From positions 1-38,105 of the forward strand of contig JASJQH010000050.1 in the NCBI GenBank assembly GCA_040143965.1: a DNA stretch of 38,105 nucleotides, given 5' to 3'. The translations under genes and the position numbers were made by a program. Positions within the stretch are counted from its first letter, which is position 1. Each line of letters starts with the position of its first letter. Positions 6,747-23,150 of the stretch are shown piece after piece. The notes under the pieces were generated by a model that made no database searches, was not told the origin of the DNA, and worked only from the letters and a program-made list of their open reading frames with translations. Origin of the DNA: Basidiobolus ranarum (Eukaryota).

Positions 6747-9133
6747 ATGAAGCCTGTGCAATTCACGCAACATCTGTTCAAGGGCAGAAGTTTTGATGCC
6801 CGTCATATAGTAAAACGCCATGTTCCTCTCAGCGGATGGATCAATCGATATAATAAGAAGTGGTTGATAGGTGATTTGATTGCAGGCATCACCATCGGTA
6901 TAATGCTAGTTCCTCAAGTAAGTCAATTCTTGCTAAACAGATTCCTCAACAGAAGTAATGACCAAATAATGTTTTTGATTAGGCTCTTGCGTATGCGCAA
7001 CTGGCGTCGGTACCTGTTCAATACGGTCTCTATTCCTCATTCCTTGGTGTTGCCATTTATTGTATTTTTGGTACGTCTAAAGATATTTCAGTAGGACCAT
7101 CTGCAGTATTGGCACTGTATATTGGTACGGCATTAGATCCTCTCATAGCGAAAGGTTACGACCCAATTCAATGTGTCGTTACAATGTCATTCTTGATTGG
7201 CTGCTTCGCACTAGGGCTCGGAATCTTCAGGCTTGGTATTATCCTCGACCTGATATCTATCCCTGTTATCAAAGGATTCACTGCAGGTGCCGCTGTTACT
7301 ATTTTTTTTAGTCAGGTCAGTTAACAAATTTAGCCACATTGACCCATCTAGTAGATATTAAATTATCTGATATTTAGATCACATCTCTGCTCGGTATCTC
7401 AGGTGCAAAAGTACAAGGCCCTATCATTGATGTCATAAAAGCCATCATTGCAGTTCTTCCGCGCACAAGATGGCAAGATGCGTTGGTAGGGTTCAGTGGG
7501 ATAGCATTGATGGTTATTTTAAAATGGATGTCGGCCAAGCTGAGTAATGCCCATCCTGCAATTAAGATGCTAGGAATCACTCGCAGCGCCATCTGCGTTA
7601 TACTATTTACACTATTGTCATTTGCAGTCACCAAAACGCAAGGGGAGGGTGTTATTACTGTTGTCGGAAAAATTCCCACTGGCTTCCCTATTCCTGCTGC
7701 ACCTCGCCTAGATGGTGACTTCATTTCTCAACTCGCCGGCCCTTCGATTATTGGCCTTGTTGTGGCTATTATTGAACACATTGCGGCAGCCAGAACTTAT
7801 GGTATATTCTCATACAGCCGAATAATTCTGAGGCCCGTAACTGATATTTACTGAATTCTTAGGTCGCCTAAACAATTACAAAACAGATAGTAGTCAGGAA
7901 TTCATCGCGCTTGGAGTATGTAACATATTTAATAGCTTCTTTAGTACCTTTCCAGTTACCGGTGCATTATCACGTAGTGCAGTGATCTCACAATCCGGAG
8001 TCAGAACTCCTGCGAGCGGAATTTTCACCAGTGTCGTAGTTATGCTTTGCCTAAATTTTCTGCCCCCCGTGATGTACTTTGTTCCGAAACCTATACTCGC
8101 TGCCATCATTATGGTCAGCATTGTTCCACTGATATGTGGATTCAGTGTGTACAAGCAATTGTGGGATATTCAAAGTAACGTTATATCTCTTTGTACTGGA
8201 GTTCGACTCAATTACTAAACAGTTTCTTAACACTTAGAAACTGATATGATTGCCTGTTTACTAGCGTTTCTGGTGACGATCTTTACCAATATTGAAACAG
8301 GTATCGAAGTTGCAGTCGGATTTTCTCTTCTGATAAGTTTGCATAGAATTGCCCGACCAAAATGGCAAATGCTTGGTGAAGCAGTTGAAGAGTCGGGGAT
8401 ATATGCTGATAGATGGTCCAATGATTGGGCAACGTATCCATCACCACCTGGAATTGTCATATTTCGATTCTCCGAATCTATCACATTCTTAAATGGAGAA
8501 TACTTTAAAGACAAAGTCCTAAATGCTGCATATATAGCCACTGAACCAGCGGAGAAGTTACCAGACTCTTGGGCAGAGCGAATTTGGTCTGATGATAGGG
8601 ATTCTCGTATCCGCCGTATACGAAATGCATTTATTCAGCAATTACCGCCAAATGCAATTAATCGGCCAAGCGAAACGAGTACACCCGATGTAAACTTTGA
8701 AAGTGACCGGCTATCGAGTACTGATGACCTTTCGGTTGCGATGGACACTGAGAAGAAAGATTCCATTGCAACCTTAAAGGCAGTGATACTGGACTTTAGT
8801 GGGGTGAATCATGTAGATTTTGCCGGATTGCAATGTCTCTTAGACTTAAAATCGCAGCTTACCAACTACGCAGGAAATCGTGGATTTGAACTTCATTTTG
8901 TTGGTCTAAAATCCAATGTATTAAGACGTATCGAACCATCTGGTATCACCCGACATCCGGATGATGGACCAGAAGAACAACACCGGTATATGCACCTAAG
9001 CATCAGAGATTCGGTACAGTGCATAATGGAAGATTGGCATCATAAGGGGAATCAGTCCATGGGACAGCTTCATTCACAATACGACCTTAAAGAAAAATTT
9101 GATGAAGTGGATATCCATACCCATCAGCCTTGA
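6747..9133 (+). CDS. SLC26/SulP family sulfate/anion permease with C-terminal STAS domain, 5 coding exons
   Basis: join(6747..6917,6983..7315,7378..7801,7863..8174,8238..9133) = 2136 nt, GT-AG introns. Motifs: GDLIAGITIGIMLVPQ|ALAYAQLA.VPVQYGLYSSF, FGTSKDISVGP, QEFIALGVCN, TGALSRSAV..QSGVRTP, and STAS 'PPGIVIFRF' and 'VILDFSGVNHVDFAGLQCL'. A TATAAA at 6513 and a possible 5'UTR intron (6548-6696) lie upstream. Confidence 0.93.
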
Positions 9134-12806: not shown

Positions 12807-15800
12807 TCAACGACCTCTACCAAGATCGTGTGAAAACCGACACTTATCTCCATACCTACAGCTACCTTCGGCAAAAAATTTACAAGGTGCTGTCGCAATT
12901 CTAGATTTAATACCTGAGTGGTCTCTGCCTGGCCCCCAGCGACCACCACGATTTGGTCCACCTCTTCCGCGACCTCTGCCACCTCTATAATGCTTTCTAC
13001 CAGAGCCGAATCGCCATCGACGATCCTCTTCCTCATAGCCAGAATTGTAATCCTGTTGTTCATCCCCCTCATTATCATTGTATCTCTCATAATCATTACC
13101 GTATGACTGATATGATGGATCATATTCCTCCCGAGAATCCTAAAATATTCAATTTAATAAAAACTCTGATTATGTAGATAATTCGCATAGGTTACCTGAG
13201 GGTAATCTTGGTATGGGTCATATCCTTGCTCCTCAGTTGAATTCGGATGAGCAGAATGTGGTGCATCACTATTATTTGATGAGTACAATACTCCATTGGA
13301 ATTAAAAAAACATGTGACTGACCTAGTGTATTGATTCGATATATCCATATCAGGTTCATCGGGATTATAGGGTGGATCTTGTTGGGACCAACTCTGAGTA
13401 AACTCAGATTTCCATGAGTGTGAGGTGGATGTGTTGGACGGGCGGTCCCAAGATTGGGTAGAGGTAGAAGTGGTTTCAATGCTTTGACTTTGTAAAGATA
13501 CAGGGGCAGAGATTGGAGCTGCGGCTTGAACCTGTGATAATAATTGTGACAATTGGAAAGCTTCGCTTCCAACATCATAAAGTGGTATTGCTTTGACTTG
13601 ATGCGCAGAACTCTCACGAATATCCTCTTCTGGTTCATTAGGAGTGTCTGGGATATGACCTTCACTAAAGTAAACGGCAGATAGAACCTTGATCTCACGT
13701 TCTTGTTGGACAAACACTTCATTGCTATTTTCTCCACGTTGAACAACATTAAACTCGAGAAGAATGCAAAGAGGCTTTTCCCATTCTTTCATTACCGTTA
13801 TACTTGGTTCCTCCTAAAATGTTCGAGATGAAATGTCAATCATTTGTTCAATTATAAGTGTTCCTAAAGAATTTACGTACCACTTGCGTTTTGAATTCTC
13901 GAATTTGGACAAGTGCATGATCAGGGGCAAATGAAACACGCTTTTTCTTTGTTCCAGGTTTCAGTACACTTTCTGAGTCAGGTCTCATAGAGGGATGTAA
14001 ATCTAGAGTACCAACATGTGAGCCTATGCGGGAAGTCTTGTTTCTCCGCTCGGTATTATGAGAACCATTATCTTTACGCTTTGAGCTAATAAATAACATA
14101 AGAATTGAATTTAAGGACATTGTATCATCAACATATTTGAGTATCATCCTACTTATTCCCATCTCTAGAGAGTATTTTAGGTAAAAGTGCGTCCAACGGA
14201 GAAAATGAATTGTTTTTTGATTTTGATGAAGACCGAGTACCGAGTTTTGACACCGTAGCGTTGGGTCGAACTTTATTAATCTTTGGCAAAGATGTAGCGG
14301 AAAGGTTGTTAAAGAAATCGACGTTTGTAACAGCCATATTATCTTTCTTGTGTTTTATCGGTCCGGAGCTTTCGGATAGTTTCAATGAGCTGGTTTTGAC
14401 AAGTGTTGCCGAGTGAGGGAATTTCGAAATCTTGGCCTAGAAGGGCGACCGATTCGCTATTATTAGTGGTGTTACACTAATAGGGACAATTAGACGAGAA
14501 AAATTACCATGCCAGGATTCGAAGGTTTCTCAGGGCGAGATTTCTTCTGATTATCTTCTCGAGAGGTGTGACTACCATTTTTAGGGTTGTCAGCCTCAGG
14601 TTTATCACCATTTTCCCTAATAGACAACAAAATTAGTGACCCTAGCATATGAGATTCGGTACAGTAAGGATTCTACCTTGGTCGCTTCTTTTGTCCAGGA
14701 GTAGAGGCTGTCGAATTTCAAAGGGAGTTTAGCAGAGTTTAATAGAAAACTAAGTTTTTATCAAGTTTACTAACCCTCTTGCTGGATTAGCTTGGTCCAT
14801 CGATCCATTAAATCTATAGCGAGTTTTTTAACATCTAGTAATACATAAAATGATTAATTAAATAATCTACTAGGGTCAAGCATCCAAATACCTGCCTTCA
14901 TTCTCCGAATTCTTCAACGTCTTAATAACTCTACCAAGCATAGTTTCCTTCAGTGTATCAATATCCATCGGTATATTGCTCAACGCCTAAAATAGGAATG
15001 TGTCAGTGATGAAATTATAATATGAATATGATAGTTTCCAACTAACTTCTAATAACTTAATAAGCATTGGACTGCTTTCTTTCTGCGCTTGCACTATCCA
15101 CATGCGCAATACTGTAGGTCCTTTAGAATTGGAAAACCTGTGGGTACATAATTGATTAGATCAAGAGGATAGTACGACGAAGTCACATAGTCTTACGATT
15201 TTAGAGTGGTACGATCTGTTGTATTCACTAGTACTGTCAATAGAAGGGAGCGACTCATCAGTTGCTCTTCGTTGCGCATCAATTTAACAAATTTAGGAAT
15301 ATGATCAACATGACCCAATCCCCAATCTTTGTTAACAAGCGGAGTGAGCAAATGCATCAACTCATCTGCATTTTCCTACAAACATAGAATGAGTGCCAAT
15401 GCAAAAGATGAGATAGGACTAGTATAGAACGAACTTCTTTAGGTGTTGTTGCTCCACTCATTATGCCTGGATCATTGTCTAGCGGTAAATCCTCTATTGT
15501 ACAAAAGTTAGGAATTAGCAGCTTAAGTTAAGATCAATCACAAGTATACTGACTTCGAGGAGGCGGGACGATAACCTCGACAACATACTTGGGTCGTACT
15601 ACAAGTGGCACTAAAATGTGAGCATTGGAAAAATAAAATGTCTAGTAATATTTGTTAGGAAGTTATTATACAGACCTGCAGGAATAAATGGGCTAAAGTT
15701 TGGTCTAGGATTGAATACTATAACGAAACAATGAATCAGTAAGAAAGGTGAATTGAAGTGTATTTAAGATAAGTGCACCTTTCGTGGCATTCTGGTAGTT

Positions 15801-18800
15801 CTGGAAATAGTCAATTGCTCTATGGTTGATCAGGTTCAAGTTACCCCAATTGTGTGGGAAAGCAATGGGCGTAGAAGTAGGAATGGACGAGAACCGCCCA
15901 ATATTAACAGAGGCAGCAGGATAGGGCTGCGTAGCATAAGATGCACCATTACCCATGGATTCCAATCTAAGTATAGAATCTAAATTGATGCTTGAGTCAA
16001 TACTATCAATCTAAACAACTTGCACAACGTATAGACTTGATAATTACTTGGATTCAGCGCCGGAAGAGTGGAGGATTCAGACTCGAAAGAGTTAAACACA
16101 GAACCGTTTCTCATATCCTTCTTCACATTAACTACACAAAAACATATAAAATACGCTTAACTTTATAAAGCTAGGATATCACTATGAACTAAAAGACTAA
16201 CCATCATTCAGATCAATCTTTGGGCCCTCTATAGTCCCGGTTTTCAACTGACTAGGTAGCAAAGAAATGTTGGGTTTGGTCGATATCGGATTCAAGTCAA
16301 CATTTGAATTAGCCATAGACGCAGCTGATTGGATGGCTATTTTAGCTTGAATAATATGTTAGACATTCGTTCCATAAAGCAATTCAACTTACACTTACAT
16401 GCGATTTCGAAATTGTTGACTGTGGAGAAAATGTTTACTTTAGAATGGAATAATTAATGGATAACATCAAGCACTTTGCAATGAAAGAGTAAACTACCAG
16501 GGTGAGAGATGTGGCTCATATTCGACCCTGGAACCATCGTAGTCCAGTCTATCATTTCATTAGAATTAGTATGTGATCTAAGAAATAAAGAAGAACGCAT
16601 CAATTACCATGTAGGAGATTTGATGCGTGGGGGCTGCCTATTACTGAAATGGATAGGAAGTCAATTAATAAATTTGTCATTGATATTTGACGCCGAAACT
16701 GAACGTAAAGTGATTCAATGGTCGGCAATTCGCTCAAGACTTAATAATAAGTTACTTACAAGGTGGCAAAGATATACCATAAGGTGCTGGATAAGTGTAA
16801 AAGGAATGGAGGAGGTCAGTAAAAATCAATCACATTCAAAACCATAGGGCTTTGCAACGCTACCATCCGATATTCCTTGAAATGGCGAACTATATGCTAA
16901 ATGTAAAGGTGAGCCAGAAGCTATTTATGTGCAAATGTTCCGTAAATGCTCTTACCAGCTGTGTTCATTGCTCCATGAGAGTGACGTTGGGCTAAAAGCA
17001 AGGGTGAGTTGATTGGGATGTCTACTCGGTAACAAAGATGATTTGAATATACAAACCTTCCACTAAATATAGGCAAGCACAAAAAATTGAGGAGTGATGT
17101 CAATGCGAATTTACCATTGCGAAGTATTTAAGATTGCTTACAAGTTTCAATTCCTTCCAGGAAATCGCATAAGTTGGATGCATCTCCGGCTTCGTTGTCT
17201 TTATGCAAATCTGTTAGATAGTCCAGTTCAAACCCAGATGAGTAGTTGATGTTAGGAGCTAAATTTCCAAAATGTTATATTAGTCTTGACATGGAATGTG
17301 CTAATTCCAACGAGGCAGTTGTTGTTTCTTACGATCCATGATAGACACGCCCTCCGTTTTCACTGGAACTACCTCCATCATCGAAGACCAGTCTACTGAT
17401 TGGGTGACCAATTGAAGGCATGCATTAGTCTCGCGAAAGAATATAGAAGAATATCGATATCCTACCGTTGTTTGGTTGGGATTCATTGAGAGGTGAGGCT
17501 GGTCGATTTAACGGTTCATTGAATCGCATCATGTTCATCCTGGGATCAGTGACTAACAGAAAGCATGCGGTCAATTGCTGAGAATGCATGATATATAATT
17601 GCAGCTTAACCTACTATTTGTATTTTCAAACGCCTTATTGCTAATAGATGAATTGAACGACGCCCATTCTAAGAGATTGAAAAGTAATGATTTTGTCAAT
17701 CAGACCATGCTACAAAACATTGGGCCACCTCCTGGTACCAGAAAAATATAACGACAAGAAACATGATGGAGTGGCTTCTCTACAACTTAAATATTAAACA
17801 CACCTTGCTTTCCAGTAGACTGTGAAGTAATCAAATTCCCTCCACTTGTGACATAATTAAGAGGGACAGGCTCTAGATAACGCACAATGTATTTAGCTTA
17901 AAAGCAGTGCAGACATTGATAATGGGGAATATTACCAGGAGTATTCGTTCCACTATCCGACCCTCTATCACCCAGAACTACAAAGCAATTGTTTAATAAC
18001 ACAATAAGTCAGTAAACCCTATGGACACAAATTGTAGCTTACCGCCAATATATTCTGGCTTTCCTTTGACCTGAGAATCTTTCCCTCGGCGTCTCGAAAA
18101 CCAAGTGTTGATCTGAAAGGTAAAAAAACGCGTACAAATTGTGTTTAAAACCATGATGTCTGGAGTGCAGGTTGGACATAAATAACCCTTACTTGGGCCT
18201 CAGAGCATCCAAACGTATTGGCCAGATCTGACTTGATCTGTTTGGAAGGATATCCATATCTTTCCGAAGTACGGTAAGCGGTTTCTAATTCCTCTATTTG
18301 CCCTTGTGTGTAGATCATTCGACCACGAGTTCGAGGAGTGTCTGAATTGTATCATTGGGTAGGTCGAAAGATGTATGGTGTTATGATTACATTTGCATGT
18401 CGAATTTGGTTCAATTATTGTGGTTTGTTTGGTAATTTTATGAGGAAATAAACCATAGTCAGTACGCGTTGCAATGTGAAGATTGTTAAAAATGTTATGA
18501 ATCCTCAACAAGATACAGCCTATTTGGCTTACTTAAACATGATACTTTGATGCCACTACCCGATAACTATCATAGATATAGCCACCTCTCCATTTTATAT
18601 GTTTGTCAGTAATTAACGTATTAGCTTAGAGTTGGTGTAAATGTATGCCCAAGGGAAAGAATCAACACGGTGCTTCAACCTTCGAAAGAATGTAGCAAAT
18701 TACTGTCCCAATGAAACGATACTTTTTCATCATGTTTTGAGGAATGCAATTTTGAGGTTGGCAACGTTAGAGAAGATCAAGACAAATATTCAACCAATGA

Positions 18801-19297
18801 AAATGTCAGGACATCTCTCTGGTCTTACTATTGAGAAGTAACTGGTCATAATCTTTTAAAACTTCTATCCTTTTGAATATAGACGGGCTTAATTCTAGTT
18901 CAAGTAATACTTGAGCAAACATATTGACCGTATTTACGGTTGGAGAGGCAGCTTAACGTAGTAGGGCAAGAAGTATATGTATGAAAAGAAATCAAAAATA
19001 GATGGGCTTTCATCCCAGTGACTTACCAGGCTGTTGGAAGGAGGAAAGCCCTCCAGGGTCAAGTGAAGTCGTGAGGTCAGGCATGACACCAAGTATACTA
19101 TTGGGTGAGAAGGCTATTGCATGATGACCTCCTCCATTCTCGGACAACAGAGAAGTCTGCATAGTCAATGGCATAGATATAGGATGAAAAGGTATGATGT
19201 AACTATCAAAACTAGCTCCTGAAGCAGGATAGATAGAGTCTAACTCCGGTTGTTGATATATGTGTCCATCATTGAATTGGTTGTTCCAGTTATTCAT
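12807..19297 (-). CDS. PNUTS/PPP1R10-like PP1 regulatory subunit (TFIIS-N-like domain, RVxF, RGG, CCCH finger) with N-terminal atypical homeodomain, ~33 exons
   Basis: Spliced translation 15375-14775 gives ENADELMHLLTPLVNKDWGLGHVDHIPKFVKLMRNEEQLMSRSLLLTVLVNTT...VLRMWI...LLEALSNIPMDIDTLKETMLGRVIKTL...VKKLAIDLMDRWTKL, resembling the PNUTS N-terminal domain. Also KKKRVSF (RVSF 13929-13940), RGENSNE..VQQERE...P.EP, an RGG tract, and CKFFAEGSCRYGDKCRFSH (12828-12884), then TGA at 12807-12809. Upstream exons join in frame back to ATG 19297. PNUTS identity is strong (~0.9); continuity with the 5' half is inferred from splice phases. Confidence 0.8.
18073..18341 (-). other. Homeobox split by a phase-0 intron (exons 18341-18193 and 18112-18043)
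   Basis: TPRTRGRMIYTQGQIEELETAYRTSERYGYPSKQIKSDLANTFGCSEAQ|INTWFSRRRGKD, with R5, Y8, Q12, L16, Y20, YP, LA, W48-F49 and R53. Absent from the supplied ORF track. Confidence 0.85.
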
Positions 19298-20789
19298 GGA
19301 AATAGAATGGAATGACAGTGCAACTCAGCAAGTAAAATTTTTCAGAAAGTTGATAGTAATGATGAGAATGAATTGTGTGCAAACTAAGATGTTTTCGAAA
19401 CCTGAGGCTGGCAATCAAGAAGTTCTAGCTAACGATGCACTTGTTAGCTGAGTAGACCGTTAAAGGGACTTGAGGAAGCTTAGAAGTAAAAGATATGTTA
19501 GTGGCGTTTGTAGCCTATCTAACCTAAGTATATGACAGAGAAACCAACGCTAGTGTGAAGAACTAAAACTGGGTTTAGCAACTGATTTAAATCATGATAG
19601 TTTTCAATGGATTCCTGTACTACTTCTAAACATCATAAAGTCTCCTTCCCACATGACTTCAATCGTTTCCTAATGTCCTGTATTAAGAAAGGCTATATTT
19701 TAATATAAGAGGGAAGTTCTGCTTTCAGTAAAGAGTACAATCAAATATCGATGATAATTGGATACCGATGTATATACTAAAAGCCATGCACAAGCAAGGC
19801 TCACCAGAAGACAGGGTTTATTGATTGGGGATGAAGGATATTGTTAAGATCCGCTGTTTTGCATGCTAATTTGTAACTTGATTTCATTAAGTCATCATGA
19901 GAGCGCAGATTTCAAAATCCACGAATTCTACGAAGTGTGATATGGTTTAGAAGACGCGATTTACAATTACTAAGCCATCGAAGTTAGATAGAAGATGTAT
20001 GTAACTTGATTTACCCTCTCAGTATATTATCAATATGTGTATTTGCTTAGATAAAATCACACGTGCACGCCTGGTGCCCAATCCTGACCAACTTGGAAGC
20101 ATCGATTATTGCCCTCCCCAATCAAAACCAATAGCTACTTAACATACGGTTTTACAACTAGTCTAAGATTGGCTTGCTAAGGAGCATTCTGAAGCTGAAG
20201 GAGAGTAGACTATGATTGGCGTTGTCGACTCAAAATCGCAGTTGGAGCCACATACCGTATTTAGTGGACAGATATTAGATTGATTAACCACCTGTAGAGC
20301 GTTCATGCTACCGTAGAATACTGATGAATATCCATCAAACAAGCTGTATGTAGCTGATGCTGCACAGCACAGTCATTCATGCCACATCCAACCGTGATAT
20401 TCCATCTTAAACCGGGATTCTGCCATGGTCGTATCTGGTGTGGGTTTAGGATGTACAGGCATTGCACGAAATGGAACACTTGCCTGATTGATCTTTGTTT
20501 TGAGTAAATACAGAGATCTCTTAATGATTGGTGAGACGCTAGAAATGTACAGCACACTCATATCCAATCAATAGATGGACTCTTACTGCGATATATAAGC
20601 AAGCCTTACAACATGGCTATTTACTTGTCTTCTATGGCACTTTGCGTGTCGGTGATCTGTTGAGCGTGGACCAACGTATAAATAAGCAATACAGCATGAT
20701 AGGATTCCATGTCTCTGCGAGGTTCTAGGAAGCATGCATATGTGGTGATTAGATTGAAATCAATGATTTTAGTTTAGAGGTTTGACTGC

Positions 20790-21450
20790 TTCATCTTGCA
20801 AATGCAGGGATCCATCCACCATCAAATTATCTGAAGCATTAGTTTGCATCTGGGTAATTCGCGTAATTTGACAAAACAATGGTGGTAATTTGTCTATGAT
20901 CAATCCGAAATTCACTGGAAATGCCATGTTTCTCAACTAAATACAAGTGGAAGTGCAGGACTCTGAGTATAAATGAGGGTTAGGGCTAGTTATGCATTTA
21001 GCCTAAAAGAGAATCAGCTTGCGCCTTTTCTGACAAATAGACCAGCTCTATGAAATCAGGGGGTTTTGACCCTTGACTGGTCATCTTTGTAACATTGAAT
21101 GAGACTGATCAGGACAGGCAATGAAAAACCGGCAAAGTAGTTTTAGAATACTTTCTCCAATACTAACTGTATGGGCGATCTGGGCTAGTCAAGTCGAATC
21201 AGCCTGTAAGCCCAGCTCGGAGGTCAGAGAGTTGTACAAATCAGCTGATCTCCAAATGATCTGTCAGAGGCATCACAAGAGACCATAGAGAACTGGCAAA
21301 CAGCAATTGGATTAGAATTGTATACTTCTCAAGAATAGCATGGACTGTATTTAGCAATAGCCGATTGAACTGTAACAATGGCACACTTGATATAGCACTA
21401 TTGCCTATATCTATATCCTACATCAGGCTCAGATGAGACTAATGGTACAT
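20790..21450 (+). mobile_element. Decayed Tc1/mariner-like transposase
   Basis: Ordered remnants across frames: PFLTNR (KP.LT.RH, ~21023), TLDWSS/VTLNET (DW..V.WSDE), ILTVWAI (VMVWG, ~21170), NSMDC...PIEL..W (SPDLNPIE..W, ~21335-21381). No TIRs found. Confidence 0.4.
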
Positions 21451-21899
21451 GAATGGAAGAGAGTCCTTAGGACTTCTTAAAGTGTAACTGAAGACAAACA
21501 ATATTGAACTAATCAGAAGAACACCGAAGTATGCGATGCATATCCTAAGAAATGTGTGTATCTTTTCCTGCTGAGCAGGTGACAAGAGTATGGAACCAAT
21601 GGACAGTTGGGCTTTTGAAGGAGCTTGTGGAAGCAGGTGTAGGTTCTAACCCATAAATCATAATGAACAATCTATATGGCCAATACTCTGAATGTGTGTG
21701 TGAAGATTAGTGATACATATGAGGTATGTTGCATCATACATAAAAGTGGAGTGCATATGATTGAGGAATGTAAATTCCAGAGTAACATATCGCCATCAGT
21801 GTGTTGGGGCTCTAGAAATTTAGCATTCATAGAATACTGTTGCTTGAATCTGTTAAGCTTGTCCCTTTGCAATAGGGGACTCCGCGCAATTTCAGTAAG

Positions 21900-23150
21900 T
21901 CGAGATCAGCTTAGAGTGGAGGCACTTGACTCGCAATTTTCGAAGTACACTGCATCTGGTTCACTAACATGAAATAACTCTAATATAATTGATGAAATTA
22001 CGTTCCATAAATAAATTGAACCACTAGGAAATGATGAGTGAAGTGAGCTCTTGCATCTTGTTCGTTTGTGTTGTGCTTTATTCCTTAACTCAAATTCGAT
22101 TTTTCGTAAAACTTTATGTATTCTCAAAATTGTTTGGATATTAGCCACTTTCCTCACACACGAGATAATTCAGGTATTATATACTACATATATCGTGAGT
22201 TTTAACTTTATTCAATCATAGCAGTGGACAAATCGGGCATGTTTGCTAGACAGAGATTTCCAAGACAATGATGTAAAAATGTGAGGTCGAAGAATAATGG
22301 TAGAACGCCTGAATGTAGAGAAGAATATTTAGTAAAATGGAACGATCTCTTAGATCGTGCTATTTAAAAAGCATCGAGAAGATATTGGCCTATCGATATC
22401 TCGGTGAGGAAAATGAGTACTAGGTGGTTAGAGATTTGGAAAGAAGAACTAGCTCTAATGTTTATTTGATGAAATTCAAGGGTCGATCCTATTGTTGTGT
22501 AGAACGAGTGACTATTTGAGGTTTCCCTAGACCTCATGTGCGAATTCGTTAAGAATAATCCTGTATTGTACACAAGCCATTAGAGAGAAATGGAATTTAG
22601 TAGATAAACACTTGGATGTTCATTTCGAAGAAGGAGTGAATAATTCCAACATAGATCACTTATTGGAAAGAAATACATTTGAAAAATAAGCATCCAGCCT
22701 TCCCTAAACTGCTGATGCTTCGACTGGGTCGTTCAATTTTGCCAGAGCTTGGATGAAATAGAACGATAACAACTGTGAGAATAAAAGCTATTGAGGTAGT
22801 TTTTTAAAGAAATATATTACCGAACCCCATGAAGAAATGACTGCTAGATATACCTAAGTATAGATGATTATAACCAACCAATTTCAAATTGGTCGTGTCA
22901 CTGCATAGAGATTAAGCTCTATGAAATATCGAAATGATATTCCAGCTGATAAGACCAAAGATTGTACACCTCGACCGTTTAAACGTCATCCCAAGAGTCT
23001 ACTGATTATCAAAGGTGCTAATAGTAGCAGTCTACTCTAGAACATTAAACATTTCAACAGAAGTTTGCTACGTTACCCCACATTATACCACCTGTTAGCG
23101 TTTATGAATTATGTAGAGTCACAATATGACGCTTCATCTCTCGCTCAATT
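21900..23150 (-). mobile_element. Decayed Ty3/gypsy pol (protease-RT-connection)
   Basis: Minus-strand order: TLGMTF (ILGMDF), VGII/PSS, SLMACVQYRIILNE (SLRLCVDYR.LN), FYTTIGSTLEFHQINI (FSTLDL..GFHQI), GQY/MLF (G.YE..MPF), LYIQAFYHYSST (VYIDDI.IYS), LRKIEFEL..KAQ (L.K..F.W...Q). Many stops and frameshifts. Confidence 0.55.

Follow-up and report, generated by a model that had tools for sequence, protein, structure and literature searches.

A Basidiobolus ranarum gene that probably encodes a PNUTS-type phosphatase subunit with an atypical N-terminal homeodomain

The stretch of DNA analysed here, called the window, comprises 38,105 nucleotides (nt) of Basidiobolus ranarum (contig JASJQH010000050.1, assembly GCA_040143965.1, forward strand). 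Its minus strand holds a coding region, from 19297 down to 12807, whose predicted product carries a homeodomain ahead of the parts that characterise PNUTS (PPP1R10), a regulatory subunit of protein phosphatase 1 (PP1). In animals and yeasts, PNUTS-PP1 governs how RNA polymerase II is released from pausing and how it terminates. A physical complex with PP1, WDR82 and Tox4 on the polymerase is among the marks of the PNUTS class. The region is best read as one gene for a PNUTS/PPP1R10-type PP1 regulatory subunit with an extra, atypical homeodomain at its N-terminus, a reading to which we give a probability of about 0.8.

Structure of the gene

A sequence-only reading of this region had chained exons in one frame from an ATG at 19297, through a homeobox, a long linker, a TFIIS-N-like domain, an RVSF motif and an RGG region, to a CCCH finger. 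The chain is borne out: a list of 33 exons taken from the window translates exactly to the public B. ranarum protein K7432_002000 (1216 amino acids, aa; hereafter P0001), which begins at that ATG and ends at a TGA at 12809-12807. P0001 was retrieved by protein searches with the window exons as queries, the largest exon first. Its public record reads 'hypothetical protein' with precomputed Pfam matches to PF00046, PF08711 and CCCH families, and its UniRef name begins 'Serine/threonine-protein phosph...'. An exon chain curated by hand from the sequence and candidate introns had given an uninterrupted frame of 1234 aa before the comparison with P0001, and four changes turned it into P0001: a 6-nt micro-exon, three other acceptors and one extra intron. 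Automatic exon chaining scored on length and splice signals only was dropped, its chains ending in stops. The features are listed below; P0002 is a paralogue in B. ranarum, P0003 a B. meristosporus protein and P0006 a protein assigned to Basidiobolus by alignment only.

12807..19297, minus strand: whole coding region of the homeodomain-PNUTS gene; 33 exons, 32 introns, 1216 aa, equal to K7432_002000
19027..19297, minus strand: exon 1 (271 nt), aa 1-90, N-terminal region; conserved within Basidiobolus, 71% identity to P0002
18342..19026, minus strand: intron 1, 685 nt, GT-AG, phase 1; by far the longest intron, splitting exon 1 from the homeobox in frame
18341-18193 and 18112-18043, minus strand: the two homeobox exons, Pfam Homeodomain at aa 96-151, with an 80-nt phase-0 intron between them
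15554..17977, minus strand: linker, aa 164-548; 18 exons of 6-201 nt, every one a multiple of 3, flanked by the phase-1 introns 3-21
17057..17062, minus strand: 6-nt micro-exon TGGAAG between introns of 79 and 65 nt; required to reproduce P0001
14677..15493, minus strand: six TFIIS-N exons, aa ~565-715; Pfam Med26 and PDB PPP1R10 matches
14835..14895, minus strand: intron 25, GC-AG, inside the TFIIS-N domain; the GC donor keeps the frame
13929..13940, minus strand: RVSF, a candidate RVxF motif for PP1 docking, with KKK before it and a Leu six residues after the Phe (+6); P0002 and P0003 have the same sequence
13323..13813, minus strand: conserved block EEPSITV...IPLYDVGSE.FQLSQLLSQVQ, directly after RVSF; 68% identity to P0002
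12924..12986, minus strand: RGG/RG box, conserved in P0002, P0003 and P0006
12828..12884, minus strand: C-terminal CCCH zinc finger; zf-CCCH_4 scores 47.3 bits with the exon and 42.5 bits with the whole protein

With ~38-40% G+C and short GT-AG introns, the window is a eukaryotic contig. All 32 introns of the gene end in AG, and 31 begin with GT and one with GC. Apart from intron 1, they measure 53-135 nt, and retention of 28 of the 32 would bring a stop within 22 codons. A chain of this kind exceeds what chance would yield. The GC donor of intron 25 restores the sequence ...NSENEDVKKLA... and was accepted because the product aligns, gap-free, to human PNUTS; the GT donor lying 4 nt farther downstream would shift the frame and was rejected. 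Between the split homeobox and the helical TFIIS-N-like region, the open frames are many, short and rich in serine, proline and asparagine. The micro-exon supplies the middle of ETLEAQRHSH, and its LEA motif is also present in P0002 and P0003.

The intron phases read 1,0, then 19 ones, then 0,2,0,1,1,2,0,2,0,2,0. The intron between the homeobox exons falls at homeodomain position 44/45, and the two exons together form a 219-nt cassette of phase 1-1. Introns 3-21 (window 17978-15494) are thus 19 consecutive phase-1 introns, and intron 1 is of phase 1 too. An introner-like origin of the phase-1 introns was considered; no pair of introns is similar at E <1e-3, which makes a repeated introner element unlikely. 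The ~0.9 kb flanking the gene on each side hold no open reading frame of at least 70 aa.

The homeodomain and the PNUTS half

Pfam profiles place three domains on the whole protein: Homeodomain at 36.1 bits (PF00046, aa 96-151; curated cut-off 22.9), Med26/TFIIS-N at 45.6 bits (aa 655-705; cut-off 20.6) and zf-CCCH_4 at aa 1191-1211. On single exons, Homeodomain scores 28.5 bits and several CCCH families are matched. The profile check of the spliced protein thereby confirms the three domains proposed from the sequence alone, all above threshold, and the linker is present, as are the RVSF and RGG motifs.

The TFIIS-N domain is specifically of the PNUTS type. Its best PDB matches are the PPP1R10 domains 9ci7, 6zv2, 7lqt and 6vti, with E-values from 7e-15 to 1e-12 over aa 572-717 (~145 residues); other matches to the region are weaker, the best to TFIIS at 9e-6 and the rest, to TFIIS, Elongin A and MED26, at ~1e-5 or weaker. 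Downstream of the domain lies a basic patch with an RVxF motif (KKKRVSF, Leu at +6), and a motif of the form [KR][KR]x0-1[VI]x[FW] stands downstream of TFIIS-N in 19 of 21 homeodomain-bearing proteins scanned. The C-terminus carries an RGG region and a CCCH finger, and PNUTS likewise ends in an RG/RGG region and a CCCH finger. A C-terminal CCCH finger was found in 6 of the same 21 proteins, those of Basidiobolus and of four chytrids. The block after RVSF is conserved in P0003 and P0006 as well and, from its position, may be the segment that binds WDR82/Swd2. A match of the RVSF exon to PCNA in the PDB search was discarded as spurious (per-stretch E-values ~500).

The homeodomain is genuine by profile and is also matched by PDB homeodomains (aristaless, CDX2) at E 7e-5 and weaker. 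At 85% identity to the paralogue it is the best-conserved part of the N-terminal region. Its helix 3 reads W-F-S-R-R-R, so that of the canonical contact set Trp48, Phe49, Asn51 and Arg53 three residues are kept and Asn51, a nearly invariant base-contacting residue of homeodomains, is replaced by Arg. Arg51 recurs in nearly all the fungal members aligned; among rows with helix 3 present, only Lunasporangiospora has WFENRR. The Basidiobolus homeodomains also carry a three-residue insertion in the helix 1/2 loop, at the position typical of TALE homeodomains (exon 18341-18193), and Homeobox_KN scores 24.3 bits on the Basidiobolus homeodomain against a cut-off of 24. The insertion is missing from the aligned Mortierellomycotina, Glomeromycotina and chytrid members, and TALE membership was therefore rejected in favour of a local insertion.

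These features bear on what the homeodomain might do. Because Asn51 is replaced by Arg, tethering to DNA is a guess; judged from its residues, the most likely role is a non-canonical contact with nucleic acid or chromatin, or a contact with protein, rather than classic TAAT recognition, and our best guess is a non-canonical DNA or chromatin contact.

One gene or two

The continuity of the homeobox with the PNUTS half was examined within Basidiobolus. The paralogue P0002 (K7432_002299, 1257 aa) lies on another contig of B. ranarum and has the same order throughout, from MNNWNNQ to the CCCH finger. P0001 and P0002 are 71% identical in exon 1, 85% in the homeodomain, 85% in the TFIIS-N region and 64-94% in the rest. 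Their linkers align at 64% identity (aa 164-272) and 50% (aa 273-560), which marks the stretch between the domains as coding and conserved; it is partly conserved in B. meristosporus P0003 and P0005 too. No in-frame stop occurs between the homeobox and TFIIS-N exons, and the gaps are only 53-135 nt. The junction of exons 1 and 2, ...QQ(P/H)|D(T/A)PR..., is common to the window gene, P0002 and P0004, a B. meristosporus model. With exon 1 as query, a search among proteins of 159-2000 aa found only the two B. ranarum proteins and no B. meristosporus N-terminus. A further B. meristosporus model, P0005 (338539, partial, 798 aa), covers exon 1, a homeobox exon, the linker and TFIIS-N in a single model.

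The layout extends well beyond this genus. A HMMER scan with P0003 gave 484 matches at E <=0.001, of which the best 150 were analysed as representatives; together with P0002 and P0004 these were scanned with a local homeodomain profile, a PNUTS-type TFIIS-N query and two motif patterns, and the counts are given after removal of the two added rows. Of the 150, 127 match the PNUTS-type TFIIS-N, and 20 of those 127 also carry a homeodomain, always N-terminal to it; some matches are partial, from truncated gene models. Of the first 10 checked against Pfam, 9 had the homeodomain confirmed and only the mis-spliced P0005 did not; two further cases come from Pfam, P0027 (above threshold) and P0131 (below threshold). 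All 20 homeodomain-bearing representatives were looked up, and the 19 with an organism name all come from early-diverging fungi, namely chytrids, Mucoromycota or Basidiobolus. They include Dissophora, Podila, Linnemannia, Lunasporangiospora, Gamsiella and Mortierella, with Haplosporangium as a cluster member, from Mortierellomycotina; Ambispora and Racocetra from Glomeromycotina; Apophysomyces from Mucoromycotina; and, among chytrids, Phlyctochytrium, Fimicolochytrium, Blyttiomyces, Batrachochytrium (five records) and Siphonaria (flagged as possible contamination). The Endogone isoform P0165 bears a truncated homeodomain, and a shorter Endogone isoform has no homeodomain match. Several genera have short spacers between homeodomain and TFIIS-N. 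That of Linnemannia hyalina, ~22 residues, leaves no room for two genes, and the two-gene reading is thereby excluded for the family taken as a whole.

Ten strong matches that lack a homeodomain in the local scan were looked up, and seven carry names; the named ones include the shorter Endogone isoform, a sponge 'PPP1R10-like' protein, centipede PPP1R10, the chytrid Nowakowskiella and the Basidiomycota Mucidula and Clavulina. The sponge protein is among the best non-fungal matches (E 5e-22), and neither it nor the centipede protein, the two animal relatives looked up, gives a homeodomain match. Mucidula and Clavulina have TFIIS-N and CCCH, and no homeodomain in the ~300-330 residues ahead of TFIIS-N. 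Plant LUMINIDEPENDENS (LD) is absent among the best 150 of the 484 matches.

Two side observations concern other relatives. In Apophysomyces sp. BC1015 the orthologue appears in the annotation as two adjacent models of 677 and 582 aa that together correspond to the 1283-aa model of BC1034 and BC1021 (P0082, P0163, P0162); the split falls downstream of the homeodomain, TFIIS-N and RVxF. Other partners of TFIIS-N are seen in P0137, P0147 and P0077, which are two Set2-like proteins (AWS, SET, TFIIS-N, WW, SRI) and one protein with SAND, TFIIS-N and CCCH.

The public model, the paralogue of the same layout, P0005 and the 20 of 150 listed relatives all agree with the fused homeodomain-PNUTS protein that had been proposed from the sequence, and on these comparisons the fusion is very likely real. 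Several points weigh on the other side. All four Basidiobolus models, those of B. ranarum included, are computational predictions; P0005 is a poor model, with introns retained and the second homeobox exon missing; and the RVSF exon has no significant match to solved structures in the PDB search. In addition, the Joint Genome Institute (JGI) annotation splits another B. meristosporus locus into two adjacent models on one contig, P0004 (317654, 175 aa, 'partial'), which holds the homeobox, and P0003 (317653, 973 aa), a PNUTS model that starts at MNFPDDFELDY inside the linker. The split locus is the sole evidence for two adjacent same-strand genes, a small homeobox gene and a PNUTS gene, wrongly merged by gene predictors, and it has the look of incomplete modelling. 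The last 19 residues of P0004, a model flagged partial, are non-homologous and come just past a splice donor position, an apparent intron read-through, and the starting Met of P0003 is Ile in both B. ranarum proteins. Between the end of P0004 and the beginning of P0003, both B. ranarum paralogues have conserved coding sequence (the 64% segment), with no in-frame stop and introns of only 62-135 nt. Homeodomain and TFIIS-N moreover share a single model in the 20 listed representatives, spanning more than 15 genera. A false merger of two genes is thus very unlikely.

The locus could be single and the full fusion still not its main product, if exon skipping, intron retention or an internal start gave isoforms without the homeodomain, homeodomain-only products, or both. 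Skipping the homeobox cassette or any of the 18 phase 1-1 linker exons keeps the frame, exon 1 ending in phase 1, and P0004 resembles an intron-retaining, homeodomain-only product. This argument is drawn entirely from gene structure, while the homeodomain, so similar between the paralogues, is kept beside TFIIS-N across phyla, which argues that the fused form is used; we consider predominance of such isoforms unlikely. It appears highly improbable that the protein is a homeobox transcription factor with a borrowed TFIIS-N domain and zinc finger rather than the PP1 subunit of the fungus. Several relatives are named only 'Homeobox domain-containing protein' in UniProt and PP1 docking by RVSF is a prediction, but the TFIIS-N domain is of the PNUTS type over ~145 residues, and the order TFIIS-N, basic patch with RVxF, conserved block, RGG and CCCH is that of PNUTS. 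Nor does a second, homeodomain-free Basidiobolus PNUTS occur among the best matches listed, which hold only P0001, P0003, P0005 and P0006 from this genus. A single gene for a homeodomain-bearing PNUTS remains the preferred reading.

Elsewhere in the window, the ~3 kb upstream of the ATG (19325-23000) show few and short open frames on both strands. On the plus strand, 7841-9133 contains long open frames that by eye resemble the membrane and STAS-like C-terminal parts of a sulfate-permease-type transporter.

Relation to PNUTS, Ppn1 and LUMINIDEPENDENS

The window protein shares with animal PNUTS/PPP1R10 the PNUTS-type TFIIS-N (best PDB E 7e-15), the basic patch and RVxF downstream of it, the RGG box and the C-terminal CCCH finger. 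It differs at the front: animal PNUTS has TFIIS-N at its very N-terminus and no homeodomain, whereas ~560 residues precede it here, comprising the homeodomain and a linker of ~400 aa. The PP1 site of PNUTS is quoted as RKRKTVTW (PMC7990198). Schizosaccharomyces pombe Ppn1 is described as having a disordered N-terminus, a TFIIS-like domain, a basic patch with a Vx(F/W) site for Dis2/PP1 and Leu at +6, followed directly by the Swd22 segment (PMC7990198). The window protein has the same order and the same Leu at +6, a likeness to Ppn1 and to Saccharomyces cerevisiae Ref2, phosphatase-module subunits of the cleavage and polyadenylation factor (CPF), that is judged by the description of Ppn1. The disordered N-terminus of Ppn1 is described as dispensable, and the portion of PMC7990198 consulted mentions neither a homeodomain nor a CCCH finger.

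The front of the protein resembles the Arabidopsis flowering regulator LD, in which a homeodomain likewise lies N-terminal to TFIIS-N in a largely disordered protein (aa 96-151 and aa 565-715 in the window protein). LD is not known to have a CCCH finger. LD has been proposed as the plant equivalent of Ref2/PNUTS that binds APRF1 (WDR82) and TOPP4 (PP1) (PMC7616277); the link dates from 2024 and was made on weak sequence similarity (PMC7616277), and the word 'homeodomain' does not occur in the main text of that paper. We infer from PMC2775110 and PMC7616277 together that the LUMI domain of LD is TFIIS-N. The LD homeodomain is itself atypical, with W48F and N51X (PMC2775110), and chromatin immunoprecipitation of LD is reported to give no typical homeobox motif (PMC12704789). 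The window homeodomain matches half of this signature: it has N51X (Arg51) and keeps Trp48. The LUMINIDEPENDENS-like architecture named in the sequence-only reading accordingly stands by its domain order and by the shared N51X, though W48F is not shared. As a lead only, the named cluster nearest to the Ambispora protein in the ESM Atlas is 'Homeobox protein LUMINIDEPENDENS' (score 0.84).

The age of the layout was approached with a TFIIS-N tree with 30 rows, made up of 28 named relatives and two Set2-type outgroups, from which unnamed matches were left out. Lineage groups are recovered and the backbone is an unresolved polytomy, so that the tree neither shows nor rejects a single origin or an order of homeodomain losses. 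It pairs P0005 with the window gene (90/81) and P0003 with P0002 (94/74), neither branch being starred, and the domain order is the same at all four Basidiobolus loci. The Basidiobolus duplication seems to be older than the split of B. ranarum and B. meristosporus. The survey of early-diverging fungi suggested by the sequence-only reading found the layout in chytrids, Mucoromycota and Basidiobolus. With members spread over chytrids, Mortierellomycotina, Glomeromycotina, Mucoromycotina and Basidiobolus, the comparison favours a layout that is old within fungi over a recent local fusion. That reading had left retained ancestry and convergence side by side for an architecture of this fungus; the balance now tips towards age within fungi, and other fungi share the architecture. 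On the accepted phylogeny of fungi, parsimony suggests that the fungal ancestor had the homeodomain and that Dikarya lost it. More tentatively, and at rather less than even odds, homeodomain, TFIIS-N, RVxF and CCCH in this order may be the ancestral form of PNUTS, passed down to early-diverging fungi and to land plants, where it would be LD, with independent loss of the homeodomain in animals and Dikarya.

A working model can be drawn from PNUTS, Ppn1 and LD. The protein would be a disordered scaffold whose RVSF segment docks PP1, while the conserved block after it would bind the WDR82/Swd2 orthologue. Elongation factors would be recognised by TFIIS-N through short disordered motifs, and RNA would be contacted by the RGG box and the CCCH finger. 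Combined, these parts could deliver PP1 to RNA polymerase II during elongation, to act in pause release, 3'-end processing and termination, and the homeodomain might add its non-canonical nucleic-acid, chromatin or protein contact. The phase 1-1 homeodomain cassette and the 18 phase 1-1 linker exons would permit modular isoforms with or without the homeodomain.

Part of this was already known: the gene models are public, some with automatic PPP1R10 or homeobox names, and the LD-PNUTS link is published (PMC7616277). A full-text literature search found no paper uniting PNUTS, homeodomain and fungi, and broader searches, judged on titles and abstracts, gave nothing relevant; in PMC12139180 'homeodomain' occurs only in 'plant homeodomain' (PHD) fingers. 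What is new is a fungal family that joins an LD-like front (homeodomain and TFIIS-N) to an animal-like back (RVxF, RGG, CCCH), a natural bridge that strengthens the equation of LD with PNUTS. The family suggests that the termination phosphatase has long included the homeodomain, which animals and Dikarya lost, and it calls into question the reported origin of the LD class within streptophytes, after the split of Chlorophyta and Streptophyta (PMC2775110). If the ancestral reading is true, LD would count as a genuine orthologue of PNUTS, and its class would not have originated in streptophytes. The role of a homeodomain that lacks Asn51 on a phosphatase scaffold could be studied in tractable fungi, among them Mucorales and Batrachochytrium.

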